Assembly (NCBI GenBank): GCA_963608705.1
Contig: CAVDHB010000048.1
Location: 3,664 to 67,663 of the forward strand
Source: Prevotella sp. P5-108
GTDB taxonomy: Bacteria; Bacteroidota; Bacteroidia; Bacteroidales; Bacteroidaceae
Length of the DNA stretch: 64,000 bases
Reading direction: 5' to 3'
Shown: one piece after another, positions 7,794 to 33,389 of the stretch
How positions within the stretch are numbered: position 1 is the first letter of the stretch
Layout of the letters: each line of letters starts with the position of its first letter
The notes under the pieces: model-generated
Told to the model about the DNA's origin: nothing
What the model saw: only the letters and a program-made list of their open reading frames with translations
Database searches by the model: none
Made by a program: the position numbers and the translations under genes

Positions 7794-8000
7794 TTCTGTA
7801 TCTCTACATAAGAGATACAGAAATCGGCTGCAAATATATTAAAAATATTGCACATACAGTGAGTTGGGACGAAAAAAATAACTCACATTATCTTCCAAAA
7901 TTTATCGCTGTTTACTTTCTTTTACAGTTCGTGAGTCCCTTACTCGTACATTATCAATGAATTACATGGCATTCTGTATCTCTTATGTAGAGACGCGGAA
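7794..8000. promoter_or_regulatory. Putative invertible CPS promoter segment flanked by inverted recombination sites; -7 box TATATTTG on minus strand (7838-7831), OFF orientation
   Basis: Left site is 7794-7822, TTCTGTATCTCT-ACATA-AGAGATACAGAA. Right site is 7972-8000, TTCTGTATCTCT-TATGT-AGAGACGCGGAA. The spacers are reverse complements. The only TAnnTTTG match inside the segment is on the minus strand. Confidence 0.65.
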
Positions 8001-8256
8001 GAAACCGGGAAACATAACCCGATATGGCTTTCAAAAAGCAGAGCGTATGACACACAATTTGCTACTCACGGGCTTGTCCGCATCATGCATGCGGAAAGCT
8101 GAAAGACATAAAAGTATTGAAGATTAGTGGAAGTCAGTCTATTGGTTTTTCAATGCTGTGACACATCTCACACCCATGTAACTTGGAAAAGACGCTCTTT
8201 TCCGGGGAAGCCGGGATGTATTCTTCGCACAGCGCATTTTTCAAGTCGTTAACTTT

Positions 8257-10320
8257 ATGTGGTTCGTCGTCAAGACCGAAGTTTTCACCGAGCGGCGTTC
8301 GATAGACACCCTGCGTGAGAAATTCAAGGACACAATAGCCGACATCTATTTTCCCTTAAGAAAGAGGGTCTATAAAGATGACCAAGGGGAAGAGAAAGCG
8401 CGTTTCGTGCCTGTCCTGCGGGGACTGTTCTTCATCAGGGTCCAGGATGAAAGGCGTTTGAGCTGGATTCTTTCCCCGTACGGGTATTTCATGTACAAAG
8501 GCGTTGACTACACGGGAGGTGCGGAGACAGAACGCTTCTTCCTCACCCAGGCGCATCTTCTTTGCGCCGACCGCAAGTCATTGACATTGGGGGAAATCAT
8601 CAGACAGGCGAGAATCCCCGACGAGGAAATGGACCGCTTCATCTATTATACCGATAAACTCGGTGAGGGCATTGAGGGCCTGAGTATCGTGGACCAAAGA
8701 TACGGCGACCTCGTACGGGTGAATGACACCATACGCATTCTCAGCGGACCTTTGACGGGTTGGGTCGGCGTAATCAGGCAAATCAAACACAAGGGCAGGA
8801 AGGACCGTCATCTTCTGGTACGTTTCGGAAACAACCACTGTCTTAACATCTCCAATATCCGCCAGTACGACATGCGGATAGAGCACGAGGCGACGAAGGG
8901 CGCAAAGTCCGAGGAGGTGGGCGTATGGCGCGCCATAGACCAGATGACAGGCTATCTGCAGGCCAAGAATCCCGCCGGCAACGCGGCGGACACATTACGG
9001 AATATTTTCAAAGACTATCAAAAGAAAACCGCGGTCTACCGCAACCGCCGTATGTCAGACATCGCATACAGCGACAAGACAGCCGAAATGAAAGTCGCCC
9101 GGCGGAAAGAGGTTCTTGGGCATATTGACGAATCCATGCGGAACAATTTCCTTATACTCGCCAATTATTTCAAGGCGGACGGTGAGACCGTCGACCGGGG
9201 ATTAAAAGAACTCATCCCCGATGTGGTACTCCGTCCCTTCCTCACCCCCACTTCAGGCGTATCCATTCCACAAGGACAAGAGTATGCGGTTTTGTGCCAT
9301 AACGAAATCACAGAGCTCATCCTTCGCCGCAACCTCCGTGCTTTTTTCCGGGGCGAAGAATACGACTCCGGGAAGTACGCCCCCGTCTTTGAGGAAGACT
9401 ACGAGTATTACGCCCACTTCGCACTTTTGAAAACAGAGGAGGGCAAACTTAAGATTATCTGCTCATGGGGAGGTTTCTATGATTATTACGCCTCACAGAA
9501 CAAGGAAGAGCGGACGAAATTCATCGATGACTTAGAAGCGAAAAAATACCCCCGTCTGCATTACCTGCTGACGGAAAGCCCTTACAAGTTCGAGAGTACG
9601 AACGGCATAGGCGGCTTTTCCCTGGAAACAGACATGAATTACACAACCGATCCAGAGGAATTAGGCCGAGAGGCGAGCGAATACCTCACTCATAATCCCT
9701 CACTCCTCACCCAACTCACAGCCGCTGCCGTGGAAGTGTGGCAAGGAGCGCGCCTACTGGTTTGGCGGAAGTTGCTCCAACGTTACGTCCTGCTCCATAA
9801 GGTGCCGGTCACAGACCAACCTTCCGTCATCACTCACGACACCAAACTGGAAGAGGCGTTTGTGAAGGCGGACGGCAAGCTCGACATGACGAAGGTGGCC
9901 GAAACTTTGACAGCAAGTAAAGGAGTCATTGAGGAACATTTGGAAAACAAAGAGGTGGCGGAAGCCGTTTTCAAGTTTCTTTCCACCTCCTTGGTGTATG
10001 CCACCCATTTCGCCCAAGACGAGCTGTACAACTATGTCTGTGACACGTTCAACCCCGACAGAACCTTGTCCGGGTTGTTCAATCGCATTGTCGAACAATG
10101 CGGGGAGGCATCCAATAGTCGTTCCATCGTCAGGCATCTGCACAAAGGCATGGCCGAGTTGCAAGAGCTGGACTCTTGGAGATATTTCAAGTTCCCTTCA
10201 TTTCTCAAGCAAACGAGAAAGACAGACAAGGTAATTTCTTCCTTTCGTCCATCCACAACGCCTGGCCGGCTTGCAAAAAGGCGATCCGTCAAAGTAAGCA
10301 CTCCTGAAAAAGTATCCTAA
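8257..10320 (+). CDS. UpxY-like NusG-family transcription antiterminator with ~470-aa uncharacterised C-terminal extension
   Basis: The N-terminal ~215 aa shows an NGN-like region (WFVVKTEVFTERRSIDTLREK...FVPVLRGLFFIRV), the UpxY-typical IPDEEMDRFIYY, and a KOW (GDLVRVNDTIRILSGPLTGWVGVIRQIKHKGRKDRHLLVRF). The remaining sequence has no motif I recognise. Confidence 0.8.
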   Translation: MWFVVKTEVFTERRSIDTLREKFKDTIADIYFPLRKRVYKDDQGEEKARFVPVLRGLFFIRVQDERRLSWILSPYGYFMYKGVDYTGGAETERFFLTQAHLLCADRKSLTLGEIIRQARIPDEEMDRFIYYTDKLGEGIEGLSIVDQRYGDLVRVNDTIRILSGPLTGWVGVIRQIKHKGRKDRHLLVRFGNNHCLNISNIRQYDMRIEHEATKGAKSEEVGVWRAIDQMTGYLQAKNPAGNAADTLRNIFKDYQKKTAVYRNRRMSDIAYSDKTAEMKVARRKEVLGHIDESMRNNFLILANYFKADGETVDRGLKELIPDVVLRPFLTPTSGVSIPQGQEYAVLCHNEITELILRRNLRAFFRGEEYDSGKYAPVFEEDYEYYAHFALLKTEEGKLKIICSWGGFYDYYASQNKEERTKFIDDLEAKKYPRLHYLLTESPYKFESTNGIGGFSLETDMNYTTDPEELGREASEYLTHNPSLLTQLTAAAVEVWQGARLLVWRKLLQRYVLLHKVPVTDQPSVITHDTKLEEAFVKADGKLDMTKVAETLTASKGVIEEHLENKEVAEAVFKFLSTSLVYATHFAQDELYNYVCDTFNPDRTLSGLFNRIVEQCGEASNSRSIVRHLHKGMAELQELDSWRYFKFPSFLKQTRKTDKVISSFRPSTTPGRLAKRRSVKVSTPEKVS

Positions 10321-10370
10321 GATACATGGCCAAGTATCTTAAGATACATCGCCAAGTATCCTAAGATACT
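10311..10370. repeat. Three tandem 22-bp units each containing the palindrome GTATC-N4-GATAC
   Basis: AGTATCCTAAGATACA (10311), AGTATCTTAAGATACA (10333), AGTATCCTAAGATACT (10355), with exact 22-bp phasing. The first copy overlaps the stop codon of the upxY-like gene. Confidence 0.85.
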
Positions 10371-10463
10371 TTGAAAAGTGACCCTAGACATAGAAAACAT
10401 GGAGGGGATTATTTGCAGATATGGGGATAAGTCCTTATCTTCGCAAAAAACAATCTTGACGGT

Positions 10464-12035
10464 ATGATGGAACGACGCAGAAAACTTTACCCCATAGGAA
10501 TACAGACTTTCTCGAACATACGGGAAGGCGACTATCTGTATATAGACAAGACGGAGTATGTGTACTGTATGGCCACATCTGACGCCAAGTACATATTCCT
10601 CAGTCGTCCACGCAGGTTTGGGAAATCTCTGCTCACCTCCACTCTGGAAAGTTATTTCTCCGGGAAAAAGGAATTGTTCAAAGGCTTGGCCATTGAGAAG
10701 CTGGAGAAGGAATGGACGGAATACCCAGTGCTTCACTTTGACATGAGCTTGGGTAAGTACATGGACAAGGAACAGCTGGAAGAATACTTGTGCTATCAGC
10801 TTCTTGACAAAGAATCTGCTTTTGGCATAACAAATCCTGTTAAAGGAACAAACAACCGTCTGACAAACCTTATCAAGACGGCATATAATAAGATCGGCAA
10901 GAAAGTCGTCATTCTCATAGATGAATATGACGCCCCTTTGCTCGATGTGGTGCATGAGGAGAAGAATCTCCCTGTCCTACGTGACGTGATGCGCAACTTC
11001 TACAGTCCGTTGAAAGGTTGCGACCCCTATTTGCGCTTCGTCTTCCTGACTGGAATAACGAAGTTCTCACAGCTCAGCATCTTCAGCGAGCTGAACAACA
11101 TCGACAACATCAGTATGGATGAGCGTTACGCTGCCGTATGTGGCATAACCGAAGAGGAGATGCTCACTCAAATGGACAACGACCTGAACCTGTTGGCGGA
11201 TAATTTGAAAATGACCAAGGAGGATGCTCTGTCAAAATTGAAGGAAAACTACGACGGCTATCACTTCACGTGGCCTTCCCCTGACATCTACAATCCTTTC
11301 AGTTTGCTCACGGCGTTGTCTAAAGGTAAGATCGGATCTTACTGGTTCGGTAGCGGAACTCCCACCTACCTGATAGAGATGCTGGCAAAATATCATGTCA
11401 CACCTCAGAGAATAGGCGGAATGAGTATTCCCGCCGATGCTTTTGATGCCCCGACAGAACGGCTGATAGATATATCACCACTGCTTTACCAAAGTGGATA
11501 TATCACCATCAAAGGCTATTCCTACATTACGGAGCTGTACACATTGGACATACCTAACAAGGAGGTGAGGGTAGGCTTGATGAAAAGCCTGCTTCCGAAT
11601 TATGTCAGCGTCCATACGAACATGGGGCTTTCCACAATAGGACAGATGTACGGGCGCATATATGAGGATGACATGGACGGAGCGTTAGAACTCTTGCAAA
11701 CATTTCTCTCCACCGTTCCCTATTGCGACCATACCGACTACGAGGGGCATTATCAGCAGATGCTCTACGTGATTTTCAGCATCTTGGGAATGTATACCGA
11801 TGTAGAGGTACGCACTCCTCGTGGAAGAGTAGACATAGTAATGCGTTCACCTCATACCTTATATATTATGGAGTTGAAACTCGACAAGGGTGCAGACGTG
11901 GCGATGAACCAGATAGACTTGAAGCAGTATCCTGAGCGTTTCCGCCTGTACAGACTGCCTATCGTTAAGGTGGGTATCAGTTTCGACAGCGGAACACACA
12001 CACTTGGGGAATGGAAGATTACGCAAGACGCTTAA
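10464..12035 (+). CDS. AAA-ATPase-like domain protein with C-terminal PD-(D/E)XK nuclease-like domain (PF09820/PF08011-type)
   Basis: YPIGIQTFSNIREGDYLYIDKTEY...SRPRRFGKSL N-terminus. C-terminal GRVDIVMRSPHTLYIMELKLDK (D..E.K). This family is very common in Bacteroides. Confidence 0.8.
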   Translation: MMERRRKLYPIGIQTFSNIREGDYLYIDKTEYVYCMATSDAKYIFLSRPRRFGKSLLTSTLESYFSGKKELFKGLAIEKLEKEWTEYPVLHFDMSLGKYMDKEQLEEYLCYQLLDKESAFGITNPVKGTNNRLTNLIKTAYNKIGKKVVILIDEYDAPLLDVVHEEKNLPVLRDVMRNFYSPLKGCDPYLRFVFLTGITKFSQLSIFSELNNIDNISMDERYAAVCGITEEEMLTQMDNDLNLLADNLKMTKEDALSKLKENYDGYHFTWPSPDIYNPFSLLTALSKGKIGSYWFGSGTPTYLIEMLAKYHVTPQRIGGMSIPADAFDAPTERLIDISPLLYQSGYITIKGYSYITELYTLDIPNKEVRVGLMKSLLPNYVSVHTNMGLSTIGQMYGRIYEDDMDGALELLQTFLSTVPYCDHTDYEGHYQQMLYVIFSILGMYTDVEVRTPRGRVDIVMRSPHTLYIMELKLDKGADVAMNQIDLKQYPERFRLYRLPIVKVGISFDSGTHTLGEWKITQDA

Positions 12036-12101
12036 ACTCTATGGAGCAGCCTTGAAAGCATGGAACAACTGTGGAAAAAAGCACGTTGAATCCTCTCATG
12101 T

Positions 12102-12551
12102 ATGTCCGAGATAATTTTCAATATATACGGAGGCAATAACCAAATCCTCCCCAATGCCGCTCATGCCGAGCAGCACTTCTACGGCGACGCTTTCGCGGAG
12201 GAACGACTCGTAAGAGAGAGCGTCGCGCCCCTTACGGCAGAGGAGAAGGCACTGTCCATCTATATAAACAAGGTGGAAAAGTTGCGTGGTTACATAGCCC
12301 TCCTTCGTTCCTGCAAGACCGCAGGGGATTTTGGCGAGGTGGTCGCCACGATGCGTCAGCAAGAGCCATCGCTCACCGACGAGCTGATAGTGAAGCGGCG
12401 TTTCCTCTCCCTTCTCCTTCCTTTTCTTCCCAAATGGGAAAAAGGGCGGAGCATAGACAACCTGCGGGTGGCTGTCAACAACGCATGGTCGGCTCGGAAG
12501 AAAACGCTTCATCCGACTGGTCGAACTGCCATTCAAAAGTCATGTAAGTGA
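12102..12551 (+). CDS. Hypothetical protein (149 aa)
   Basis: ATG-initiated ORF co-directional with neighbours, with plausible helical composition. An equal-length antisense ORF exists, so the strand choice is not certain. Confidence 0.5.
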   Translation: MSEIIFNIYGGNNQILPNAAHAEQHFYGDAFAEERLVRESVAPLTAEEKALSIYINKVEKLRGYIALLRSCKTAGDFGEVVATMRQQEPSLTDELIVKRRFLSLLLPFLPKWEKGRSIDNLRVAVNNAWSARKKTLHPTGRTAIQKSCK

Positions 12552-12658
12552 CTTTGCAAAGTTACGAAAGCGTTGATAGAATGAAATAATTATCTGAATG
12601 TTTGATTGTCTCAAATACAATTGTATATCTGTGTCAGATTTTAAAGATAAGACGTATT

Positions 12659-12883
12659 ATGGCAACTCAAGTGTTACGATTCAATCTCACTCAGCAAGCC
12701 GTGCTCAATGTGGTAGCTTGCTTACAATCTGAGCAAGATTTGGCAGATTTGAGACGGACTCTCGTTAAGTTCATGAACGAACGTATGCAGCGAGAAATGG
12801 ACAAATTGTGGGAATCCGGCTCTTGGTCTGAGGAAAGACTGGAATCCATGCGCTCTGAGCACCTACGAACCCTTTACAAATAA
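12659..12883 (+). CDS. Putative antitoxin partner of the PIN toxin (74 aa)
   Basis: Small helical ORF from ATG 12659 ending 7 nt before the PIN gene. The assignment is positional only. Confidence 0.5.
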   Translation: MATQVLRFNLTQQAVLNVVACLQSEQDLADLRRTLVKFMNERMQREMDKLWESGSWSEERLESMRSEHLRTLYK

Positions 12884-12890
12884 TTTACGT

Positions 12891-13304
12891 ATGAAAAGGC
12901 GTATTGTCTTGGATACAAATTGTTTGTTGCAGATAATTTCTCGCAAAAGCAAGAACTATTTCCTGTGGAATGGATTCTTGAATGGTGACTATTGGCTTTG
13001 TTATACGACAGAAGGAGTACGAAGAATTATAGGAACGAAAGCCAATCCAGTCATTGCTTCAATGGTGTTGAACATTATATGCGAAGCACCTAACACGTTA
13101 AGGGTTGACGCCCGTTATCATTGGAATCTGATTACGGAGGATTCGAATGACAATAAGTTTGTTGACTGTGCCATATTCTGTAATGCGGATTATATTGTTT
13201 CTGAAGATAAACATTTTAAGGTCTTGAAAAAAGTTAAATTTCTAAAAGTTTTCGTCATTCGATTAGAAGAATTTGCAAGACTGTTTAGAACACAAGAACA
13301 ATGA
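12891..13304 (+). CDS. PIN-domain toxin (TIGR00305-like)
   Basis: IVLDTNCLL N-terminal acidic motif and DNKFVDCAIFCNADYIVSEDKHF C-terminal motif. Confidence 0.75.
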   Translation: MKRRIVLDTNCLLQIISRKSKNYFLWNGFLNGDYWLCYTTEGVRRIIGTKANPVIASMVLNIICEAPNTLRVDARYHWNLITEDSNDNKFVDCAIFCNADYIVSEDKHFKVLKKVKFLKVFVIRLEEFARLFRTQEQ

Positions 13305-13747
13305 GGTTCTTTAAGCCATAGTTTAAAGGCAAAATCTGTACTGAACATATTATGTACGTTCGGGCTTTTGGCAAGTTGTAAATGTAAAGTAGTTGAAACA
13401 AATGCTCCGTCATGATTATAAGAAATGTACAGGCGAAGAACCCAAGTTCGTAAATGTATGGTAATATGAAAGAGCTATCAAGCGTTGAGAAATCGCTTAT
13501 TCAAATCATGGTTCGCATACGCTAATGAAAAAGACCAATACATGATAATGATGGCCAACGTGCGTGATTTGGAAGAAATGGACATTTATGCTGCTATGAT
13601 TCTGAGAAAAGACAACCCGCATTTTGTCGATTATATATCTGAATTCAGCAAGAATGTCAATATGTTTATGATAAAGTCAGAGTAAGAATCATATAAAACG
13701 AAGGCAACCCGATAGACTGTAATATTGTAGAGTACGCTGTCCAGCTA

Positions 13748-14034
13748 TTGACTACACTGCGCAATTCCATGCTCCACTTTGTCAGCGACGAAAGAGCGAA
13801 GATGGCTGCCACTTACCACAACATTATCAGTACGGTGAAGCTGCAAGGAAGGTCGGCATGGGATTATCTTGTAAAGTTTTTCGTTAATGTCTTTAACGGT
13901 TGCAGGGATTTTATCAGCCTACGGACAGACAATATCGGATTGGCAGTATGCTAATAGTTAATAAACACATTGAATTTTAACCACTCAATATATAGGCACC
14001 TATACAAGGGGTATGCCCTAATTTGAGTGCTTAC
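13748..14034 (+). mobile_element. IS66-family remnant: 3' end of transposase plus terminal inverted repeat
   Basis: LRNSMLHFVSDERAKMAATYHNIISTVKLQGRSAWDYLVKFF matches the conserved IS66 TnpC C-terminus (..NxLFxGSxxGA..YSLIxTCKLNG..YL..). The downstream sequence ends ..GAGTGCTTAC, the reverse complement of a GTAAGC-type IS66 end. No upstream transposase body is present. Confidence 0.65.
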
Positions 14035-14243
14035 TTTATGGGCGAGGAGGTGGATATCTCATTCTTGCCATGTGACTATGTTCGCCATTTTGAAGACGGC
14101 AAGGATGCAGAGGTCACTAAGCCATCCCAAGCTGTCGCTTGATTGTTAAATAATAAAAATCGAAACTTTATTCAAAAATACTGGTATAACTAACCCACTG
14201 ATAAATAGTGTGAACGCTGTATTGGTGGCTTACATTTTAAAAT

Positions 14244-14600
14244 ATGAAAATCATCTTAAATACAGAAAATACATTCCAAGCTGTAAAGTTGAGGGAACTG
14301 GTAATTAAAGGTATCAAGGGGGAAATAGAAAATATAAATATCAATACTTGGAGTTATACTAAGTCTGTTGAAAAATATGATATTGTTTTCCATAACCCAG
14401 AGCAATACTTAAACGATCCAGAAAAAAATGTACTTTTCAAATTAGATGTAGATGGTTCTTTTATCGTACTATCAATTGTATGGTGGAAGAAGAATCCTGA
14501 ACCTTCTGATGAAATGAAATGCTACCATGTAGGTAAGTTGGTAGAAATGCTGTTATGCCATTTTCGAAACAACTATATAAAACTTAGTATTGTTGACTAA
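14244..14600 (+). CDS. Hypothetical protein (118 aa), upstream partner of the HEPN-like gene
   Basis: AT-rich ATG ORF ending 11 nt before the next gene. No recognisable motif. Confidence 0.6.
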   Translation: MKIILNTENTFQAVKLRELVIKGIKGEIENININTWSYTKSVEKYDIVFHNPEQYLNDPEKNVLFKLDVDGSFIVLSIVWWKKNPEPSDEMKCYHVGKLVEMLLCHFRNNYIKLSIVD

Positions 14601-14611
14601 ATATAACGATT

Positions 14612-15922
14612 ATGGGTGCAAATATAGGAAACGAAGATATGAATCCCATCTTAGAAGAGGTTGTAAGTAATTTGAATAACTTTATAGAAAATATTAATTG
14701 CTTACGTGAAACATACGATTTCAGCAAAGGTATGCTTAATCAGCAATTACAATCTGCTACCAAAAGCTATGAGATTTTTATTGCTCCATTTCGTTCATTT
14801 GATGAAAAGGGTAATTTTCAGTTGGATGTTCCTATAGAAAAAATAAAAGAGTACAAGAAGTTATGCAAGAGAAAATGCCGTGCAGAAAAGGCTTTCCAAC
14901 TGATACCGCCTTCATATATTGTAACTTTGGTATCTTTATATGATACTTTTTTGGCTGGTTTTGTTAGGTGTATATATAGCTTGAAGGAAAGTTTGATTCT
15001 TGAAAGTAATATAAGCTTTAGTTTTCGGGATATAGCTGAATATGGCTCTATAAAAGAAGTAAAGAAGAACGTAATAGATAATACCATTGACAGACTATTT
15101 CGCGACTCGCATACGGAACAAATCGACTGGATAGAAAAAGCTATAGATGTTAAGACGTTGAAGCAATTTTCTGGATGGGCTTCTTTTGTTGAATTGACTG
15201 AGAGACGTAATCTTTTTGTTCATTCCGATGGAATGGTATCGTCTCAATATTTGAAAGAATGCAAAAAGTGCAATTATGACACTGATGGTATTGAGGTTGG
15301 AAGTAAACTCTTTGCTGATGATAGTTACTTCGAAAACTCATACAAATTACTTTATGAAATGTCTGTAATGATGACACAGATATTACTTAACAAGCTTTAT
15401 ATTGGTGTCTATACAAACGATACTGGGGTGCGAGATAAAATATTGATAGGTAATATCTATGAATTAATTAGCGAAAAACTTTACGATGTAGCTATTAATG
15501 TTTCGATGTTTGCTCGTGATGGAAAAAGTTTTAAGCGTAATAATAAAGATAGAACTTATATTGAGTTAAATTTGGCTCAAGCTTATAAATGGTCAGGGCA
15601 TAATGACAAATGCCTTGCAGTATTGAGGGATTTGGATACTAGCGCAATGAATCTTGACTTACAGATACCTAAGAAAGTGTTAGAAGAAAAATATGATGAG
15701 GTATATACTATGATGAAATCTTTAGGTTCAGGCAGTGATATACTTACCAAAGAGGCTTATCGTGAATGGCCAATATTCAAAGAAATAAGAAAGCAAGAGA
15801 AGTTCAAGAATGTATTTGAAATGATATTTGCAGAAAAATTATTATTACAGAATGTTCCAACCTCAGTGGAATCTTCTATAAAATGCAAGGATGAAATATC
15901 CTCAAGAGAAGTCGAATTATAA
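14612..15922 (+). CDS. HEPN-like (RNxxxH motif) protein with helical-repeat C-terminal region
   Basis: ELTERRNLFVHSDG contains R199-N-x3-H204 (nt 15206-15223), the canonical HEPN RNase motif in a helical context. The C-terminal ~170 aa looks TPR/helical-repeat-like. Confidence 0.6.
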   Translation: MGANIGNEDMNPILEEVVSNLNNFIENINCLRETYDFSKGMLNQQLQSATKSYEIFIAPFRSFDEKGNFQLDVPIEKIKEYKKLCKRKCRAEKAFQLIPPSYIVTLVSLYDTFLAGFVRCIYSLKESLILESNISFSFRDIAEYGSIKEVKKNVIDNTIDRLFRDSHTEQIDWIEKAIDVKTLKQFSGWASFVELTERRNLFVHSDGMVSSQYLKECKKCNYDTDGIEVGSKLFADDSYFENSYKLLYEMSVMMTQILLNKLYIGVYTNDTGVRDKILIGNIYELISEKLYDVAINVSMFARDGKSFKRNNKDRTYIELNLAQAYKWSGHNDKCLAVLRDLDTSAMNLDLQIPKKVLEEKYDEVYTMMKSLGSGSDILTKEAYREWPIFKEIRKQEKFKNVFEMIFAEKLLLQNVPTSVESSIKCKDEISSREVEL

Positions 15923-24258: not shown

Positions 24259-24277
24259 TCTGATTTATATATCGAAT

Positions 24278-25252: not shown

Positions 25253-25260
25253 TAAAGAAC

Positions 25261-26367
25261 ATGAAAATACTAGAAATCAATCAGTGGCTTGCTTCTGGAG
25301 GGGGAGAACGTTTTATTGTAGATTTGAGCAACGAATTGGCGACAAGAAAGGGCTTTGAAGTCTACGTTTGTACATATATGGATGATAAAGACCATAACAA
25401 TGGTTTTTATAAATCACAGCTAAAAAAGAATGTACACTACATAAATTTAAAAGGCAAACAGAATCTGTTGTCAAAGATAAAGATGGTCTTTTCAGTCTTC
25501 TTCTTGATATGCAAAATAAGACCTGATGTCGTACATTGCCATTTAAGCGCATTCTATTTTGTCTTGATACCATCTATACTTTTCAGAAATATAAAATTTG
25601 TAAACACAATACATAATCTTGCATCTAAGGATATAAAGCCTGGAGTTGAGAAAATACTCAAGAAAATCGCATATAGATATTTGATATGCCCTGTCACCAT
25701 ATCTCCTATGTGTTATGACTCTTTCTCAGAATATATGGGATTCAATACCTCCACATTGATTGACAATGGTTGTCGTGAAATAAAAGTAACCTCTCGATTT
25801 GATGAAGTTCATAGGGAGGTTGAATCTTATAAAAAAACTGATAAAACAAAAGTATTGATAAATGTGGCACGTGTCCATCCTCAAAAGAATCAGAAATTAT
25901 TGATTGAAAGCTTTAATAAATTGATTGATAAAGGATATGATGCCATTCTGCTAATTTTGGGTTCTTTGAATGATTATCCTATGATCGTTAATGAACTGAG
26001 AACTATAAATCGTACCGACAGGGTTCATTTCTTAGGTGCAAGGGATAATGTATCAGATTACCTGTTTAACAGTGATGCTTTTTGTCTATCCTCATCGTAT
26101 GAAGGTGCTCCAATCTCATTACTCGAAGCTGGATTTGCTGGATGTTATCCCTTGTGCACACCTGTGGGAGGATGTAAAGATACTATAGTGGATAAAAACT
26201 GGGGATTACTTTCAAATGATTTGGGCACAGATTCTTACACTAAGATATTAATAGATTATATGAATAATCCACATCCCTCACGAGAAGATATTTCGAACCT
26301 TTATCACGGTAAGTATACAATGAGAGAGTGTGCAAATAAATATATTAATCTTTTTATACATAAATGA
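25261..26367 (+). CDS. Glycosyltransferase family 4 (GT1-fold)
   Basis: C-terminal SSSYEGAPISLLEAGFAGCYPLCTPVGG (E-x7-E region). Confidence 0.85.
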   Translation: MKILEINQWLASGGGERFIVDLSNELATRKGFEVYVCTYMDDKDHNNGFYKSQLKKNVHYINLKGKQNLLSKIKMVFSVFFLICKIRPDVVHCHLSAFYFVLIPSILFRNIKFVNTIHNLASKDIKPGVEKILKKIAYRYLICPVTISPMCYDSFSEYMGFNTSTLIDNGCREIKVTSRFDEVHREVESYKKTDKTKVLINVARVHPQKNQKLLIESFNKLIDKGYDAILLILGSLNDYPMIVNELRTINRTDRVHFLGARDNVSDYLFNSDAFCLSSSYEGAPISLLEAGFAGCYPLCTPVGGCKDTIVDKNWGLLSNDLGTDSYTKILIDYMNNPHPSREDISNLYHGKYTMRECANKYINLFIHK

Positions 26368-26915
26368 TAACAACCAAAAAAGAACTGGGAGAATACATCA
26401 GATGCGACCGTTATGCACAGGGTATGCAGCATCCGTTAATGGCTAAATTCACTTATGGTGAGAACGCCATGATAAGACGTTATATGACTAATCTTCGCAA
26501 GACAGAATACTGGAGCACTAAACATTGTCTTTGGGGACGATTGATGTATGGCTTCCACTTCTTAAAGCATAGACGTATGTCACTTAAATATGGCATGTAC
26601 ATAGGCTTGAACGCAGTTGACAAGGGGTTCTTCATCGTCCATCCAGGTTTTATACGAATAGATTCATGGGTTCATATAGGCAAGAACTGTACCGTGTTGC
26701 CTATGGTTCTCTTTGGCAGGGCGCATCCGATAAACGGAACAGAAATATTCGTTGGTGACAATTGTTATGTGGGAACAGGTGCCACAGTCCTCGGGCCTGT
26801 AAAGATAGGAAACAATGTGACTATAGCCGCAGGTGCAGTAGTGACAAAAGATGTGCCAGACAACGTGGTAGTTGCTGGTGTGCCTGCTAAGATAGTGAAA
26901 TATAAAGAAGAGTAA
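26364..26915 (+). CDS. Hexapeptide-repeat O-acetyltransferase (serine acetyltransferase-like)
   Basis: Left-handed beta-helix repeats VGDNCYVGTGATVLGPVKIGNNVTIAAGAVVTKDVPDNVVVAGVPAKIV. ATGA overlap with the upstream GT. Confidence 0.85.
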   Translation: MITTKKELGEYIRCDRYAQGMQHPLMAKFTYGENAMIRRYMTNLRKTEYWSTKHCLWGRLMYGFHFLKHRRMSLKYGMYIGLNAVDKGFFIVHPGFIRIDSWVHIGKNCTVLPMVLFGRAHPINGTEIFVGDNCYVGTGATVLGPVKIGNNVTIAAGAVVTKDVPDNVVVAGVPAKIVKYKEE

Positions 26916-26959
26916 TAATAGATTGGAAAATCATTATTCAAAATGATAACAAAACAAAT

Positions 26960-27796
26960 ATGGCAAAAGAGAAGATAAAAAGGAAAAACGTTGAGATGGC
27001 ATTTATTAATGTCGTTCTTTATCCAACAGAAAAGCAAAAACCTGAAGAGTATGTAAAATTGCTCTATTCCATTATGGCTGGTCGTGTGATGATAAATAGT
27101 CGAAATTCATACCGTTCAACATTGCTACGAGCTTTTGATTTTGAGGGTGATTATTATCACGGTTACTTTTGTAATGCCATATTTCTAAAGGATGATTTCT
27201 GGGCGTTAAATATTAGAGATAATCTGCTTGAAGAGGCAGTTATTGATCCTAATAAGGTATTAGATCCCAAGTATATGGAATTTTGGTTTTATCCTAAATA
27301 TCATAGGTTTGCTGTTCGTAAATCGGACGTTACGAAAATTGTAAAATTCTTGATTGGCAGTTTTAAATTCAAGTTGGGAGATGAAGATAGTTTTGCTGTC
27401 AATATAGAAAAGGATAAGAATATAATTGAAAGAATAATCAATTCAGAAGGCATAGTAAAGATAAAGATTTCCATTAGATATTCCAATAATGACAATTGTG
27501 AGGACTGGGAAGATTTGGATTCAGTATTACGTAATTCGGATACGAATAAGGCAGAATTATCTTTGCAATCAAGCAATGCTAAGCCAATACAGGCTAAAAA
27601 GAATTGGTTGTTGAGAGCCTTTTTGGTTCTAAGTAAATCTTATGGTACAGCTACAGCCAAAATTATCAACGAAAATGGATACATAGAAGATGTAGATACG
27701 AAAAGGTATCCAAATACACGTACAGTAGATTTCAATCAAAACCCAGAAAAAGACATAAGAGATTGCATTGAGGGTATCGCGCAAAATAAAGTATAG
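26960..27796 (+). CDS. DUF4747-like cytoplasmic protein (no glycan-enzyme motif)
   Basis: AFINVVLYPTEKQKPEEYVKLLYSI N-terminus, L-PKYMEFWFYPKYHRFAV, and IKISIRYSNNDNCEDWED. These resemble my recollection of the DUF4747 layout, but this is unverified. No TM or signal peptide. Confidence 0.5.
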   Translation: MAKEKIKRKNVEMAFINVVLYPTEKQKPEEYVKLLYSIMAGRVMINSRNSYRSTLLRAFDFEGDYYHGYFCNAIFLKDDFWALNIRDNLLEEAVIDPNKVLDPKYMEFWFYPKYHRFAVRKSDVTKIVKFLIGSFKFKLGDEDSFAVNIEKDKNIIERIINSEGIVKIKISIRYSNNDNCEDWEDLDSVLRNSDTNKAELSLQSSNAKPIQAKKNWLLRAFLVLSKSYGTATAKIINENGYIEDVDTKRYPNTRTVDFNQNPEKDIRDCIEGIAQNKV

Positions 27797-27798
27797 TT

Positions 27799-28380
27799 AT
27801 GGGGATAAGGAAACCACCTACATTGCAATCAAAAGGATGGAGTGGCTTTAATTTTGTCTACTTTAAGTTTTGCGGAAAACAGTTTAGGCATTCACTTCGG
27901 TGGGCAAGTTGTGCTGTTGTTCTTGCTTTTATTGTATCTGTGCTGTCTCCAAAACCGTATTATGATTTATTAGTTGTTTTGACTAGTATCGGTCTGAAGG
28001 TTGCACCCCCACTTTTAGGCTTTACTCTTTCCGGGTATGCATTGGTTATAGGCGTAAACGATGCCAATGTTTCAGAACGATTGAAGAGATACAAAACAAA
28101 AACAGGTATTACAATGTATCAGCAGCTTTATACTACCTTCATAGCCATGCTTGGATCAATATTTCTACTGCTGGTAGAAAGTGTCATATTGCACTACGCT
28201 TTGGAATCAGGTATCATGTTGTCCAATTCTATTGTAGTTGGTATTGTTAATATTAGTATCTTTTTAATATATTCGTTCACTATGTTTTATGCCTTGTTTG
28301 CAGTCAAAGATTTACTGTCAAATTTATTTAGTCTAGGACAGACAATTAATAACATTCATCAAGAGACACATAAACAATAA
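27799..28380 (+). CDS. Small 4-TM membrane protein (193 aa), translationally coupled to the upstream gene
   Basis: The start is 2 nt after the upstream stop. There are four hydrophobic helices (AVVLAFIVSVL; LLVVLTSIGLKVAPPLLGFTLSGYALVIGV; FIAMLGSIFLLLVESVILHYAL; VVGIVNISIFLIYSFTMFYALFAV). Confidence 0.7.
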   Translation: MGIRKPPTLQSKGWSGFNFVYFKFCGKQFRHSLRWASCAVVLAFIVSVLSPKPYYDLLVVLTSIGLKVAPPLLGFTLSGYALVIGVNDANVSERLKRYKTKTGITMYQQLYTTFIAMLGSIFLLLVESVILHYALESGIMLSNSIVVGIVNISIFLIYSFTMFYALFAVKDLLSNLFSLGQTINNIHQETHKQ

Positions 28381-28385
28381 GAAAA

Positions 28386-28559
28386 ATGAATATACTTTTC
28401 TTGATAAAAGGTTGGGGCGTTGGAGGACTGGAGGTCGTAATGTTCTTGTTAGCAAATAAGTTTATTTTTTTGCTTATGTCACAAACTCAAATATGCCATT
28501 TACGTGTAATAACAAGCATGTTTATGAAATATAAATATGACATTTACGAGGTTCAGTGA
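28386..28559 (+). pseudogene. Truncated N-terminal stub of a GT4 glycosyltransferase
   Basis: MNILFLIKGWGVGGLEVVMFLLANKF is a typical GT4 N-terminus. Homology is lost after a T7 run (28450s) and the frame stops at 57 codons. Confidence 0.6.
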
Positions 28560-28621
28560 TATGTTTATTAAATTCAATGACTATAGCAAACAAGCTAAAA
28601 CATTAGATAAATATTGATTTT

Positions 28622-29614
28622 ATGAAAAGAGTTTTTTCTTTTAATTCCGAACTTTATAAAGTCACAGGGGTGCAAAAGGTACTTCTGGATGTTCATCATG
28701 CGGTCATGGAAAATTACGATGCCAAGATTGTTGGTACTGTGTCGTATGACAAGCTGCATAAAGACCAAGGCATAAAACGAGAGGAATATATAAAGTTTAG
28801 GAATCCGTTTATGTTCCGTAATTCCATAGTCATCTTACATGAAAGAAAATTTCTGGCTCTATTCTGGTTGTTGAATCATTTATTTTTCCAAAATATCAAA
28901 TTGGTGTATATTCACCATAATGTGTTCAATAACCATCGCAGAATGTCGATAATGCCCAAAAATGTGGTGGCAATTTCTGATGAAGGTGTAAGAAATCTTC
29001 ATGAGTTCTTTGGCGTACCAATGAAGAATATCCATAAAATATATAATTGCGTGAAAGACATTCACCCACATTCACATAAAATATATGATGGCGGTGTTGT
29101 GAAAATTCTTTATCCAGCGCGAATTAATGAACAGAAAAGACAACTTGAAATAGTAAAGTTCTTGAAGGGGAAATTGAACGATAAAATAAAGATACTTTTT
29201 GCTGGTACAGGGCCGTATTTTGAATCTTTGAAAGAGTCTGTGCAAGGTGATGAGCATTTTGATTGCCTTGGCTATCGTTCAGATATATACAATTTACTTT
29301 CGGAGTGCGATTATATGTTGCTGTTTTCAGGCCATGAGGGATTGTCAATTTCCCTGATAGAAGCGACTATGATGTGTACACCCATTGTTTGTAATAATGT
29401 GGGAGGAAACTCTGAGATTGTAAAAAATGGCGTAAATGGGACAGTGCTTGATGTGAATGATTGGAAGGGTCTCATAGAGACGATGAACAATTTAGCAAAT
29501 ATTCCGGGGACTAAGTATAATGAAATGTCAATGAATAGTAGGAGAATATATGAAAGCAACTTCACTTTTGAAAAATTCAAAGCAAACTATCTCAATTTAT
29601 TAAGTAAGCTATGA
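28622..29614 (+). CDS. Glycosyltransferase family 4
   Basis: GHEGLSISLIEATMMCTPIVCNNVGGNSEIV. Confidence 0.85.
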   Translation: MKRVFSFNSELYKVTGVQKVLLDVHHAVMENYDAKIVGTVSYDKLHKDQGIKREEYIKFRNPFMFRNSIVILHERKFLALFWLLNHLFFQNIKLVYIHHNVFNNHRRMSIMPKNVVAISDEGVRNLHEFFGVPMKNIHKIYNCVKDIHPHSHKIYDGGVVKILYPARINEQKRQLEIVKFLKGKLNDKIKILFAGTGPYFESLKESVQGDEHFDCLGYRSDIYNLLSECDYMLLFSGHEGLSISLIEATMMCTPIVCNNVGGNSEIVKNGVNGTVLDVNDWKGLIETMNNLANIPGTKYNEMSMNSRRIYESNFTFEKFKANYLNLLSKL

Positions 29615-30417
29615 TGAAAAGAATTATACCATTCTTCGTCTTTTTGTTCTCACTAAGCGTTAGTGGATTTGGACAGGATATTTTTGAAGAAAAGCCAGCT
29701 TTTGAGGAACATTTCACAAGCAAGGAAATCAATAAGAGCATTTGGGGATTCAGCAAAGAGCAGTCTGGTTCTCTTCCATTCTATAATGGGGATAATAAGC
29801 GTAATGTCAAAGTAAAAAAAGGAAAACTTTATCTAACCCTAAGGAAGAATAGTCCTGATGAAGGGGAAAAATCGTATACTTCTGGAAGACTTTATACGAA
29901 GAAGTTCTATCGATATGGAAAGTTCGAGATACGAGCGAAAATGCCAAGTATAAACGGTATATGGGCGGCTATTTGGTTCAGAGCTAATTGGTCCAGAACC
30001 AAGGATGGTCCTGCTTGTCGTGGAGAAGTAGACTTGATGGAATGTTTTGTAAAGAACGGAAACTACAAGAAATGGAATGTGAACGTTCATTTATGGGGAA
30101 ATATAGAAGGAAAAACTAATAGTCATAGTCAGTATCCTTATTCGGTAATGTGCGATATTTCCAAGTATCATGTTTATACACTGGAAATCGCACCAAATAA
30201 AGTCGTCTTTAAAATTGAAGGGAATATTGTACGTACTGTGAGGAGAGGTGATATACCAGAATGGCCATTCGGAAATAATGAGTATCAGCTACTATTGGCT
30301 TTGTCCTATGGTGGTTGGGATAAAAATAAAATAACAAATGATGCACGGCTTCCTCAGACAATGAAGGTTGACTATGTGAAATATTACAAGTTGAAAGGAG
30401 AATACGAAAATGATTGA
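29611..30417 (+). CDS. Secreted glycoside hydrolase family 16
   Basis: Signal peptide MMKRIIPFFVFLFSLSVSGFG. GRLYTKKFYRYGKFEIRAKMP..GIWAAIWF, and GEVDLMEC matching the GH16 ExDxxE catalytic motif. Confidence 0.8.
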   Translation: MMKRIIPFFVFLFSLSVSGFGQDIFEEKPAFEEHFTSKEINKSIWGFSKEQSGSLPFYNGDNKRNVKVKKGKLYLTLRKNSPDEGEKSYTSGRLYTKKFYRYGKFEIRAKMPSINGIWAAIWFRANWSRTKDGPACRGEVDLMECFVKNGNYKKWNVNVHLWGNIEGKTNSHSQYPYSVMCDISKYHVYTLEIAPNKVVFKIEGNIVRTVRRGDIPEWPFGNNEYQLLLALSYGGWDKNKITNDARLPQTMKVDYVKYYKLKGEYEND

Positions 30418-31594
30418 ACTTGCCTCGCATGAAACTTGTACAGGATGTACAGCCTGTATGAACAGTTGTAAGCATGGCGCAATAGAAATGAAGCCAGACA
30501 ATGAAGGTTTCCTTTTTCCCAGTATAGATACAGCGAAATGTATCGAATGTGGGTTGTGCCAAAAGCGTTGTCCGGTTCTTCAGTCCTCAGAAAGTGGGAA
30601 TTTTGACAAGCCTAAGGCTTTTGCTTTATACAGTGAGGAATACAGGAGAGTAAGTAGTTCTGGCGGAGCGTTCTCTGTATTTGCCAGATGGACTTTTGCC
30701 AAGAATGGTGTGGTATATGGAGCAGCTTTCGATGAGAATCTGTTTTGTCGACACATAAAGGCGAATACGATGGATGAACTCTCCCCAATAAGAGGTAGTA
30801 AGTATGTGCAAAGTAATATTGGAAATGTATTTGGAGAAATAAGAGATGCACTTAGGCAAGGAACACAAGTCCTGTTTACAGGCACTCCCTGTCAAGTGGC
30901 AGGTTTAAAAGAGTTCCTGCATAAATCTTACGACAATCTCTTAACATTGGATCTTACTTGTCATGGTGTTCCGTCTAACTCAGTCTTTCAGTCTTATATT
31001 GAAAGATTATCGACCCGATTCACTGGAAAAATATCATTTTTTGAATTTCGTCGGAGAGATGGATGGGGATTTGCCCCGTCTATATCTTTTGGGGGTAAAT
31101 TGCAACCAATATATGATGTGGACAATCTGTATATGTGTGCTTTTGACCGTGCCGCTTTGTTTAGAAAATCATGTTATGCTTGTCCTTATGCAAAATTACC
31201 ACGAGTTGGGGATTGCACTATTGCTGATTTTTGGGGTATCGGTCGGTATGGAAAACCATTTAAGCATAATCTTCTCAAAGGCGTTTCGCTTGTTCTTGCT
31301 AATAACGAAAAAGGTTTAGCAGCGGTGAATGCTTTGCAAGACTCTTTTATTGAAGAAAGAGATTTGCATGAAGCTTTAATAGAAAATTATAATATAACCC
31401 ATCCTTCTGCTATTTACAAGGATAGGGATGCCATTATATCTGCTTTTCTTGATAAGAGATTAAGTCTAAATGACATTGATGAGAAGTTTCATTTAGTAGA
31501 TAAAAGTCTAAAAGGCAGAATTAAGAAATATGCGACAAAGTACCATGTGTTTGATTTCGTAAAAGCCATATACAATAAATACAAAACATTATGA
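30410..31594 (+). CDS. 4Fe-4S / FrhB-like protein, copy 2
   Basis: CTGCTACMNSCKHGA and CIECGLCQKRCP, followed by an FrhB-type domain colinear with copy 1. Confidence 0.85.
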   Translation: MIELASHETCTGCTACMNSCKHGAIEMKPDNEGFLFPSIDTAKCIECGLCQKRCPVLQSSESGNFDKPKAFALYSEEYRRVSSSGGAFSVFARWTFAKNGVVYGAAFDENLFCRHIKANTMDELSPIRGSKYVQSNIGNVFGEIRDALRQGTQVLFTGTPCQVAGLKEFLHKSYDNLLTLDLTCHGVPSNSVFQSYIERLSTRFTGKISFFEFRRRDGWGFAPSISFGGKLQPIYDVDNLYMCAFDRAALFRKSCYACPYAKLPRVGDCTIADFWGIGRYGKPFKHNLLKGVSLVLANNEKGLAAVNALQDSFIEERDLHEALIENYNITHPSAIYKDRDAIISAFLDKRLSLNDIDEKFHLVDKSLKGRIKKYATKYHVFDFVKAIYNKYKTL

Positions 31595-32667
31595 GAATAG
31601 GAATACTATCCATGCAGGAAGTGAAGAATTATGGATCATTTCTTCAGGCATACTCATTGAAAAGGAATATTGAAGCACTGGGACACAAATGCGAATTTAT
31701 TAATATTATTCCTGGAGAACAGCTCGGAGATTACAAGATTAGCAAGTTCCATAAACTGCGTTTGTTGATTGAAAGGTTGTGGGGATGGGATTTTGCGAAA
31801 CGTTTCAAGTACATCTATCAGTTTCAAAGTAGGTTCTCGAAAGAGTTCTTGCCTGAATTGGGAGTAAGGCCTGGTGCTACTATTGGACATTTCGATACCG
31901 TTGTCATAGGCAGTGACGAGGTTTTCAATTGTGCCCAAAAGACATGGTTCGGATTCTCAAAACAATTGTTTGGTGAGGGGCTGGATGCCAATAAAGTAAT
32001 TACTTACGCTGCATCCTTTGGGGCGACGACTGTTTCAAAGTTGGAAAAATTGGGCATCAAGGACACGGTGGCTCAATTATTAAAGAAGCTGGATGTTATT
32101 TCCGTAAGAGATAAAAATAGTGCGGAAGTCGTTGAAATGTTGACAGGTGGCGTTCCAAGTAGAAACGTTGACCCTGTCTTTATTTATGACTATACCAAGC
32201 ACATGCCGACTTCGGTAGACTTGAAAGACTATATGATAGTTTACACTTATCCTGGACGTATTACAGACAAGAATGAAATTAAAGCCATTCGTGCATACGC
32301 TAAAAGCAAAGGTTTGCTATTGGTAAGTATTGGTCATTACTTTTCTTGGTGTGACAAGACGATTGTCCCTCATCCGTTTGAAGTACTCGCTTATTTTAAA
32401 AATGCTGAATGTATCGTAACAGATACATTCCATGGTTCTGTATTCTCTATCAAGTTCAATAAGCAATTCTGCACGATTGTGCGTGGCATGAACAGTAATA
32501 AACTTACTTATCTGTTGGAGCAGTTCGGCTTGTCTGGACGCATAATTAATGATGTTAACGAATTGCCTTCAATTATGGAAAGAGATATAGACTATTCTCT
32601 CGTGAATACGAAAATAGCTCATGAGAAAGAGCGTTCCATCGCTTACCTGAAAGAAAACCTATCATAA
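31591..32667 (+). CDS. Polysaccharide pyruvyl transferase, copy 2
   Basis: RIGILSMQEVKNYGSFLQAYSL and IVTDTFHGSVFSIKFNKQF. ATGA overlap with FrhB-like copy 2. Confidence 0.85.
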   Translation: MRIGILSMQEVKNYGSFLQAYSLKRNIEALGHKCEFINIIPGEQLGDYKISKFHKLRLLIERLWGWDFAKRFKYIYQFQSRFSKEFLPELGVRPGATIGHFDTVVIGSDEVFNCAQKTWFGFSKQLFGEGLDANKVITYAASFGATTVSKLEKLGIKDTVAQLLKKLDVISVRDKNSAEVVEMLTGGVPSRNVDPVFIYDYTKHMPTSVDLKDYMIVYTYPGRITDKNEIKAIRAYAKSKGLLLVSIGHYFSWCDKTIVPHPFEVLAYFKNAECIVTDTFHGSVFSIKFNKQFCTIVRGMNSNKLTYLLEQFGLSGRIINDVNELPSIMERDIDYSLVNTKIAHEKERSIAYLKENLS

Positions 32668-32675
32668 AAGTTAAT

Positions 32676-33389
32676 ATGAAATCCGTTTTAATAGATAAAA
32701 TAGTAATAACGGAAAAATTCTCCATAAATCAAATATTTAAATACCCGGAGAAAGTATATACATTCCTAAACCCTGTCTCTTATCTTACAGCACTCGAACA
32801 CAAAGATTTGTTTGGATTGTTTGACGGTATTTTCGCAGATGGTTCTATTCTTGTCAAAGCCATAAAGTTGCTTTATGGTGAGGACGTGACGAGACGGAGC
32901 TTTGACATGACTTCGCTTGCTCCTGAACTGCTGTCGTATGCAGAGAAGGGCGGAAAGACTATTTACATAGTGGCTTCCAAACAAGAGCAGGTGGAAAAAG
33001 CCGTGGAGATATTCAAGGAACGTTATCCCCACTTGAAGTTTGCTGGTTATAGAAATGGCTATTTCTCTTCTGAAGCAGAAAAAGACGAGGAAACACGTCA
33101 TATTGTCGCAGTTAATCCCGACTTTCTTATAGTAGGTATGGGTGCGTTGGTACAGGAGCAGTTTCTGCTGAAAGTGAAGGAAGCAGGCTACAAGGGCATA
33201 GGCTTCACATGTGGCGGATTCATCCATCAGACTGCCAAGAACGAGATAGACTATTATCCGGTATGGGTGGATAAAACTAATCTTCGTTTTGCTTATCGTA
33301 TATGGAAGGAACCACATACACGCAAGCGTTATATGCAAGCGGCTCTTCTCTTTCCAGCACGTTTTATTTGGGAAAGATTTTTCGGATAG
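32676..33389 (+). CDS. WecB/TagA/CpsF-family glycosyltransferase (GT26)
   Basis: FLNPVSYL, FADGS, IVGMGALVQEQF, GFTCGGFIHQ. Last gene of the CPS operon. Confidence 0.8.
   Translation: MKSVLIDKIVITEKFSINQIFKYPEKVYTFLNPVSYLTALEHKDLFGLFDGIFADGSILVKAIKLLYGEDVTRRSFDMTSLAPELLSYAEKGGKTIYIVASKQEQVEKAVEIFKERYPHLKFAGYRNGYFSSEAEKDEETRHIVAVNPDFLIVGMGALVQEQFLLKVKEAGYKGIGFTCGGFIHQTAKNEIDYYPVWVDKTNLRFAYRIWKEPHTRKRYMQAALLFPARFIWERFFG

Follow-up and report, generated by a model that had tools for sequence, protein, structure and literature searches.

Does a capsule operon under a phase-variable promoter switch defence-like genes ON and OFF together with the capsule when such genes stand among its glycan genes? 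The question is raised by a 64,000-nucleotide (nt) stretch of Prevotella sp. P5-108 (contig CAVDHB010000048.1, positions 3,664 to 67,663; hereafter the window), in which a promoter switch at 7.8 kb precedes a string of co-directional genes that includes five putative conflict modules. Comparison with related loci indicates that defence modules are recurrently embedded, in the orientation of the operon, in capsule operons of this kind, a finding that stands without any coupling of their expression to the switch. The explanation that we favour, and hold to be moderately probable, is a phase-variable Wzx/Wzy-type operon with inserted passenger modules and partial switch coupling. An initial annotation, made from the window sequence, had interpreted the locus as a phase-variable carrier of co-switched cargo; as a whole this interpretation is partly supported, with a recurrence across many loci stronger than its reader could know and a close published precedent for its central functional claim.

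The gene string

According to the open reading frame (ORF) list and the junction table, 24 credible genes lie between 8257 and 33389, all on the + strand as initially described, and the 4-nt ATGA overlaps (17470, 26364, 29611 and 31591) and the intergenic gaps (12 nt at 15922/15935, 2 nt at 27796/27799) quoted at that time were each exact on recount. Four minus-strand ORFs (10317-10955, 12096-12536, 16250-16855 and 32766-33416) were rejected as spurious, as they overlap + strand genes with Pfam matches or conserved homologues. Homologues of the first gene with a source name came from Segatella hominis and uncultured Prevotella, and the host appears by sequence to be Prevotella/Segatella-like and not Bacteroides.

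An invertible promoter upstream of the first gene

The switch consists of three elements:

7794-7822, no strand: left arm of an inverted repeat, the arm itself palindromic (repeat search; core kept in 14 related loci)
7823-7971, - strand: invertible promoter segment (-7 box TATATTTG and homologous segments)
7972-8000, no strand: right arm of the inverted repeat (repeat search; core kept in 14 related loci)

The arms are 29 nt each, 90% complementary and 149 nt apart, and the first gene begins 257 nt further on. The half-site AGAGATACAGAA of the repeat occurs far above chance (0.33 near-matches expected across the whole window). The segment contains a single Bacteroidetes -7 box of the form TAnnTTTG, TATATTTG (minus strand, 7831-7838); as it is directed away from the operon, the switch is OFF in this assembly.

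When genomes were scanned with an alignment of first-gene homologues, 31 loci were obtained (handles with the prefix L). The same repeat core was found in 14 related loci, with arms 134-157 nt apart and 237-327 nt before the start codon, and the position of the promoter motif next to one arm was constant in all loci compared. The motif lies on the + strand by the right arm, facing the gene, in L006, L011, L012, L018 and L030, and on the minus strand by the left arm, facing away, in the window, L001, L007-10 and L020-23. Between L022 and L030, 125 of 137 internal positions match only as the reverse complement and the flanks are collinear; furthermore, a metagenome scan returned one orthologous locus type with near-identical flanks that different metagenomes yield in the OFF state (L045, L047, L049) or in the ON state (L044, L046). 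The reverse-complemented segments with collinear flanks and the one locus assembled both ways show that this class of switch inverts in nature. The switch proposed at 7.8 kb was thereby borne out, with its inverted repeat, its internal promoter box and both orientations among homologous loci.

A 319-amino-acid (aa) tyrosine recombinase is encoded directly upstream of the switch in 13 related loci, and several paralogous switch loci occur per genome, such as L013, L015 and L025 in one metagenome-assembled genome and L005 and L021 in S. hominis. A fourth perfect copy of AGAGATACAGAA was found in the window at 7331-7342, within the 3' end of cutC and ~450 nt upstream of the left arm, and may be the remnant of a rearrangement that deleted the recombinase gene. 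More distant NusG-like genes are preceded by a second inverted-repeat family (TGCACTACTCTATAAAAGAGTAAC; L029 1-330, L028 8865-9091), and at the start of L029 stands a perfect inverted repeat of 79 nt, as typically results when an assembler runs into an invertible segment.

Conflict modules among the glycan genes

Five non-glycan elements had initially been described within the operon. The ATPase-nuclease, the PIN pair, the GmrSD gene and the DUF4747/membrane pair were confirmed, and for the HEPN-like pair the motif and the relatives speak. Together with a decayed module and a conserved protein near the first gene they comprise:

10464-12035, + strand: cargo 1, AAA-ATPase_like and PD-(D/E)XK protein (Pfam)
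12102-12551, + strand: conserved 149-aa "head" protein (homologues downstream of the NusG-like gene)
12602-13304, + strand: cargo 2, PIN_3 toxin and upstream partner (Pfam)
13485-13685, + strand: decayed cargo, DUF6169 fragment at profile positions 38-92 of 92 (Pfam)
14244-14600 and 14612-15922, + strand: cargo 3, pair of 118 aa and 436 aa with a GC content of 0.31-0.32 (motif and relatives)
18802-20535, + strand: cargo 4, GmrSD-family type IV restriction enzyme (Pfam, PADLOC)
26960-27796 and 27799-28380, + strand: cargo 5, DUF4747 protein and 193-aa membrane protein (Pfam, hydrophobicity)

The product of the first cargo gene matched AAA-ATPase_like (7.5e-69) and PDDEXK_9 (4.5e-17) in Pfam. 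The 149-aa head protein that follows it has no family match in Pfam or NCBIfam, and its homologues occur after the NusG-like gene in L001-3, L022 and L033/34. In the second module the PIN_3 toxin (12891-13304; 6.4e-10, 40.3 bits against a cut-off of 27) is preceded by a 93-aa ORF (12602-12883) that ends 7 nt upstream of it and encodes a putative antitoxin. The DUF6169 family is represented by a full-length member in L016, and the remnant in the window points to cargo turnover. A 68-aa ORF in the gene-poor stretch that follows (13748-13954) had no Pfam match; we take it to resemble the C-terminus of an IS66-type transposase.

Neither the 118-aa nor the 436-aa protein of the window had a match in any profile library searched. 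The family of the 436-aa protein contains an E..ERRNLFVH..G motif of the HEPN type (Rx4-6H) that is invariant in 33 homologues; HEPN_RiboL-PSP (Pfam) was matched weakly by 6 of these 33 relatives (best E = 3.5e-5), and a PDB sequence search with the HEPN-family profile gave nothing meaningful. Motif and relatives thus suggest that the pair is of the HEPN type.

The fourth module is a single protein with both GmrSD_N (DUF262; 1.6e-37, 130 bits) and GmrSD_C (DUF1524; 1.1e-13, 51.7 bits) above their cut-offs, and its gene is a full-length match to PADLOC HEC-06 (E = 6.3e-74). With a GC content of 0.31, compared to 0.48 and 0.43 for its neighbours, it splits a pair of FrhB and pyruvyl-transferase genes, and such GC mosaicism marks the cargo modules as insertions. 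In the fifth module the DUF4747 protein (3e-19, 69.9 bits against a Pfam cut-off of 27) is followed after a 2-nt gap by the gene of its 193-aa partner with ~4 hydrophobic segments; a tblastn search of a phage genome collection with the DUF4747 protein gave no match. No real PADLOC match was obtained for the AAA-ATPase/nuclease, the PIN pair, the HEPN pair or the DUF4747 pair (E <= 0.01 for the last), and the "defence" label of these four modules therefore rests on Pfam, context and literature.

Recurrence in related loci

In 13 related loci we annotated the 10 kb that follow the first gene, with genes called by a simple ORF picker and Pfam and PADLOC run on the concatenated ORFs, from which the best stretch per family alone was reported. 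Defence-type or mobile-element-type cargo was found in 10 of the 14 loci, window included, and the other four had none. Examples are:

L007 (S. copri 1A8_2), after the NusG-like gene: NACHT NTPase, rmlA, rmlC, PtuA-like pair (PADLOC PDC-M01A/B), Wzx
L028: AbiH, then Wzx
L034: HEC-06 GmrSD immediately 3' of the first gene
L009: FRG, NACHT, ThsB and DNA-modification genes
L012: SNF2 helicase and RdrB-like deaminase
L016: CapD, DUF6169 and a NACHT-associated nuclease
L001: RhuM, PIN pair and AAA_15/21

All identified conflict-type modules downstream of these switches were co-oriented with the NusG-like gene, and the only minus-strand genes with Pfam matches in the surveyed loci were HU-HIG, Amidase_2 and VapE-like. 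Modules of the window itself also recur: DUF4747 pairs with 54-65% identity are found in two other capsule loci, beside TIR, AAA_15/21 and toxin-antitoxin modules, and the 118/436-aa pair is found in two other capsule loci as well, with one further homologue of the 436-aa protein in an ordinary defence island beside AAA_21/RloB. The arrangement of the window, including an identical DUF4747 locus, was present in a second sample (L036), which constitutes the whole strain-level comparison; exact look-ups of the NusG-like protein, of a 91% relative and of GmrSD returned no indexed contig.

Two of the loci have cargo of an unusual kind. That of L009 (7560-10151) comprises Nmad2, a 5-hmdU DNA kinase-like domain and a thymidylate-synthase-like gene, and such DNA-hypermodification genes are usually phage-borne. 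In L012 (15380-20308) the DpdE/ZorD-like SNF2 helicase precedes an RdrB-like adenosine deaminase of 867 aa; this cargo comes after an ON-oriented switch and there are no glycan genes within 10 kb.

Leader and NusG-like first gene

Between the switch and the first cargo module lie a leader, the first gene and a repeat array:

8024-8219, + strand: conserved structured leader (15-locus alignment, RNAalifold)
8257-10320, + strand: 687-aa NusG-family paralogue, first gene of the unit (Pfam, NCBIfam, AF2, Foldseek)
10312-10369, no strand: three tandem 22-nt units, each with the palindrome GTATCYTAAGATAC (0.03 expected by chance)

Across 15 loci the leader (~190 nt, lying between right arm and start codon) is more conserved than the protein, with long invariant runs, and RNAalifold predicted 56 pairs in it, of which 8 show compensatory changes. 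Rfam contained no family for the leader; its only matches, to microRNAs, fell on the inverted repeat and were spurious. By eye, the element GCGGAAAGC at 8091-8099 and the hairpin before it (8078-8094) resemble the sites of hairpin and ops at which UpxY is recruited in Bacteroides (PMC11685472). The leader may be a regulatory RNA that has yet to be described, or a region of the ops type.

The 687-aa protein has an N-terminus of NGN and KOW domains and matched Pfam NusG with 22.4 bits against a cut-off of 22.2. In Foldseek its AF2 model (pLDDT 77.8) matched NusG, a NusG-RNA complex and RfaH over approximately the first 210 aa, with a probability of up to 1.00, and the remaining ~480 C-terminal aa had no significant match in the PDB. 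We found 151 homologues, and those with a source name are all from Segatella/Prevotella. The C-terminal part (residues ~215-660) is kept in full-length homologues of ~650-690 aa and was modelled with fair confidence; a shorter form of ~520-560 aa exists without the last ~150 aa. The possibility that the ORF is an artefactual fusion of UpxY with a downstream gene was rejected on account of the homologues of ~650-690 aa, which are conserved end to end. Glycan genes directly follow the NusG-like gene in L017, L018, L027 and L032, which supports a role as operon leader gene. Antitermination by this family would be expected by analogy with UpxY and RfaH.

The GTATCYTAAGATAC array extends over the NusG-like gene's stop codon. 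It was also found in L001-3 (L001 14324-14381) and, in degenerate form, in L033/34 (L034 15777-15812), and in these relatives it comes after the 149-aa homologue rather than the NusG-like gene. The array could be a set of binding sites or a cassette boundary.

Glycan genes of the operon

The biosynthetic genes fall on both sides of the later cargo modules:

15935-17473, + strand: Wzx-like flippase (weak match; GC 0.46-0.48)
17470-18717, + strand: FrhB-like Fe-S protein (Pfam; GC 0.46-0.48)
20560-26915, + strand: pyruvyl transferase, GT2, EpsG (Wzy-like), GT2, GT4 and hexapeptide acyltransferase (Pfam)
28622-33389, + strand: GT1, GH16, FrhB-like protein, pyruvyl transferase and WecG/TagA-family transferase (Pfam)

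The flippase, polymerase and glycosyltransferases expected of a Wzx/Wzy-dependent locus were all found, the polymerase as EpsG (87.6 bits) and the transferases as two GT2, GT4, GT1 and WecG. For Wzx the match is a weak one, with 21 bits where the cut-off is 300, and homologues of this gene sit at the flippase position in L007, L018, L027 and L028. Each of the two FrhB-like Fe-S proteins is of a kind normally partnered with a pyruvyl transferase, and one such pair overlaps at 31591. The GH16 glycoside hydrolase gene (29611-30417) overlaps both of its neighbours and is unusual for a synthesis locus.

Is the cargo switched together with the capsule?

In the explanation that we favour, the window holds a chromosomal, phase-variable polysaccharide operon of a Prevotella/Segatella bacterium. 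A ~200-bp segment with a promoter, bounded by the 29-nt inverted repeats, would be flipped by a tyrosine recombinase presumably encoded elsewhere, and in the ON state transcription would proceed via the 190-nt structured leader and the long NusG-paralogue gene, the product of which, in analogy to UpxY and RfaH, would keep RNA polymerase elongating across the 25-kb string of genes. Five conflict modules or more would have been gained by horizontal transfer, all in operon orientation, and would be passengers in an insertion-tolerant region; their uniform orientation would be explained if only co-oriented, terminator-free insertions leave capsule synthesis intact. Read-through from the switch promoter would add a phase-variable part to cargo expression. 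The coupling would be partial, with promoters of their own for GmrSD and probably for the toxin-antitoxin pair, and the AAA-ATPase, the HEPN pair and the DUF4747 pair, which are without a recognisable promoter, would depend most on the switch.

A switching of the cargo ON and OFF together with the capsule is at most an inference from the layout of the sequence. Strong terminators isolating the cargo had been named at the outset as evidence that would speak against it, and simple scans found none on the + strand at the intergenic junctions. Promoters were searched for as the TAnnTTTG box, sigma-70 scans being uninformative for Bacteroidetes. Across loci the canonical -7 box is absent before 21 of 27 cargo modules, and in the window it is absent before four of five. 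Furthermore, three cargo junctions are as short as 2-44 nt (14600/14612, 26915/26960 and 27796/27799) and leave little room for promoters.

Several observations weigh against the favoured explanation, and the first of them concern its regulatory parts. The switch of the window itself is seen in the OFF state only, from the assembly. A tblastn search with the L001 recombinase revealed no homologue in the 64-kb window, so a recombinase acting in trans has to be assumed. The 687-aa protein reached 45.7 bits against the UpxY family NF033644 of NCBIfam, the cut-off of which is 100, and none of the ORFs tested matched UpxZ in Pfam or NCBIfam, the second gene encoding the AAA-ATPase/nuclease instead. 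Of the UpxY-like antiterminator in the initial annotation, the NusG fold and the first-gene position are thus retained and the membership in UpxY is not: the protein is UpxY-like by position and modelled fold, not an UpxY member by the curated threshold. Among the ORFs of 8257-33389, Pfam gave no match to Bac_transf, Glycos_transf_4, Poly_export or Wzz. The initiating transferase and the Wza/Wzc export genes may be encoded elsewhere, and "capsule" is a reasonable rather than a proven label, given that the locus contains neither an initiating phosphoglycosyl transferase nor Wza/Wzc genes.

The remaining counter-evidence concerns the coupling and includes features within and beyond the operon:

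18767-18774, + strand: candidate GmrSD promoter, -7 box TAAGTTTG, 35 nt before the GmrSD start codon
34446-35150, - strand: PIN_3 pair, convergent, just past the operon end and outside the unit (Pfam)
35443-37653, + strand: 736-aa ResIII/Helicase_C protein with a WG repeat, outside the unit (Pfam)

The box before GmrSD is a canonical Bacteroidetes one, and across loci -7 boxes at -31 to -38 precede 6 of 27 cargo modules compared to none of 25 glycan genes. Just upstream of the PIN pair, a near-perfect 18-nt palindrome (GTGACTTTGCAAAGTTAC, 12548-12565) is operator-like; its resemblance to toxin-antitoxin operators would imply an autoregulated promoter of the pair's own. Three long gaps, at 13305-14243 (939 nt between PIN and the 118-aa gene, with gene remnants only), 21673-22114 (442 nt) and 28381-28621 (241 nt), could contain promoters or terminators missed by simple scans. 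In L001, L022 and L034 a minus-strand HU-HIG block, joined by Amidase_2 in L001 and L034, lies between the NusG-like gene and the downstream genes. The upstream flanks of the related loci were meant as a negative control and did not prove clean: CRISPR-Cas (L034), a PLD-helicase (L012) and a 37% identical copy of the AAA/PDDEXK_9 gene (L007) lie upstream of related switches, which weakens the claim that defence genes are enriched specifically downstream of the promoter. Taken together with the PIN pair and helicase past the end of the window operon, these genes indicate that the whole neighbourhood is variable and defence-rich. At the far end of this island in the window, a serine dehydratase gene was found at 38368-39585 (- strand); in L001 the serine dehydratase gene (7098-8390) is directly upstream of the recombinase and switch, and the context of the locus appears to have been rearranged between species.

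A full adaptive coupling, in which all cargo is silent in the OFF state and expressed in the ON state and the linkage is under selection as capsule phase-specific immunity, appears unlikely. It would fit the uniform co-orientation, the tight junctions and the box missing before four of the five window modules, as well as the occurrence of the same module families in different capsule loci, in many cases immediately before the flippase gene, and of several paralogous switch loci per genome. However, purifying selection against operon disruption predicts co-orientation equally well, GmrSD has a promoter box of its own, defence genes are found outside the switched unit too, and a toxin-antitoxin pair expressed only from the switch would be expected to poison cells at the ON-to-OFF transition.

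The opposite view, that the locus is a variable, defence-rich hotspot with modules transcribed from their own promoters and co-orientation reflecting the insertions that were tolerated, is one we consider fairly unlikely. The defence genes that precede related switches or lie past the end of the operon would be in line with it, and so would the AAA/PDDEXK_9 gene outside the unit in L007, the homologue of the 436-aa protein in an ordinary defence island, the turnover seen as the DUF6169 remnant and the stereotyped boxes before 6 of 27 modules. It accounts poorly, on the other hand, for the 21 modules without a canonical box, the junctions without a + strand terminator and the gaps of 2-44 nt with scarce room for promoters; moreover, resistance genes behind such promoters have been reported to be phase-variably expressed, in an earlier study as cited in PMC8748976.

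Finally, the modules might serve the locus itself, either by addiction against its loss or replacement or, in place of UpxZ, through PIN and HEPN RNases that act on the leaders of other loci and so leave one capsule per cell. The missing UpxZ-like gene, the high conservation of the leader among paralogous loci and the recurrence of PIN and HEPN modules would agree with this proposal, which is a purely inferential one; the cargo nevertheless varies highly between loci, with none in four, and GmrSD, ThsB, PtuA-like proteins and AbiH belong to families with an established or candidate role against phages. We regard it as very improbable.

Comparison with known systems

Phase-variable capsular polysaccharide (CPS) operons with UpxY and UpxZ are known from Bacteroides fragilis and B. 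thetaiotaomicron (PMC11685472, PMC12118408). The window locus shares with these an invertible promoter with inverted repeats (and, in its relatives, an adjoining recombinase), a NusG-family first gene, a long co-directional glycan operon and a leader hairpin with an ops-like element. In contrast to them, its first gene encodes 687 aa, ~480 of which are unmatched, and scores below the UpxY cut-off, no UpxZ was found, a local recombinase, initiating transferase and export genes are missing, and five conflict modules are interleaved.

The closest precedent is the capture of antibiotic-resistance genes in a highly variable region behind glycan-type invertible promoters with upxY as the first gene, in hosts that include Prevotella copri and with the cargo on integrative conjugative elements (PMC8748976). 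There, too, foreign cargo lies downstream of an invertible promoter with upxY or glycan genes between, whereas in the window the cargo consists of defence and toxin modules and is housed by a capsule operon on the chromosome; PMC8748976 makes no mention of defence, toxin or phage. In papers on Bacteroides capsules and phages, defence systems figure as loci of their own (PMC13139388, PMC12118408), and full-text literature searches, with most subscription journals outside their coverage, returned no account of capsule operons with defence modules inside them. The novelty put forward initially for these gene families is a narrower one in view of the cargo behind glycan-type invertible promoters that is already published (PMC8748976).

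As in defence islands, unrelated conflict systems are clustered, show turnover and decayed remnants and are accompanied by more defence genes just outside the unit; unlike in such islands, the modules of the window are dispersed among the biosynthetic genes of one operon, co-oriented and located behind a phase-variable promoter. For the DUF4747 and membrane protein pair, exclusion systems of the RexAB/CarolAnn type served as the layout reference (PMC7542560, PMC13373217). The order of a ~278-aa cytoplasmic DUF4747 protein followed by a small multi-pass membrane protein is shared with lambda RexAB and the DUF4747/CarolAnn prophage exclusion, but the window pair, a putative exclusion system, is in a capsule operon and not a prophage and has no PADLOC or phage tblastn match. 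The GmrSD gene agrees with GmrSD/HEC-06 in having both Pfam domains above cut-off and a full-length PADLOC match, and differs from the usual setting in its location between an FrhB-like gene and the usual pyruvyl-transferase partner of that gene.

Implications

Segatella and Prevotella are dominant gut bacteria in which capsule regulation is little studied, and the family of long NusG paralogues with its own conserved structured leader is of interest independently of any coupling. A more far-reaching conjecture, to which we give a low probability, is that Segatella/Prevotella capsule loci are dedicated carriers of circulating defence cassettes, most of them inserted after the regulatory head and before the flippase gene. 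Each phase-variable paralogue would then pair its own capsule with its own immune set, possibly matched to the phages of that capsule, so that a clone would hedge its bets on receptor and immunity jointly. If read-through from the switch does control embedded defence genes, receptor variation and part of intracellular immunity would co-vary in a clonal population, which would bear on phage therapy, on the coexistence of phages and hosts in the gut and on the spread of defence genes by hitch-hiking with capsule cassettes.

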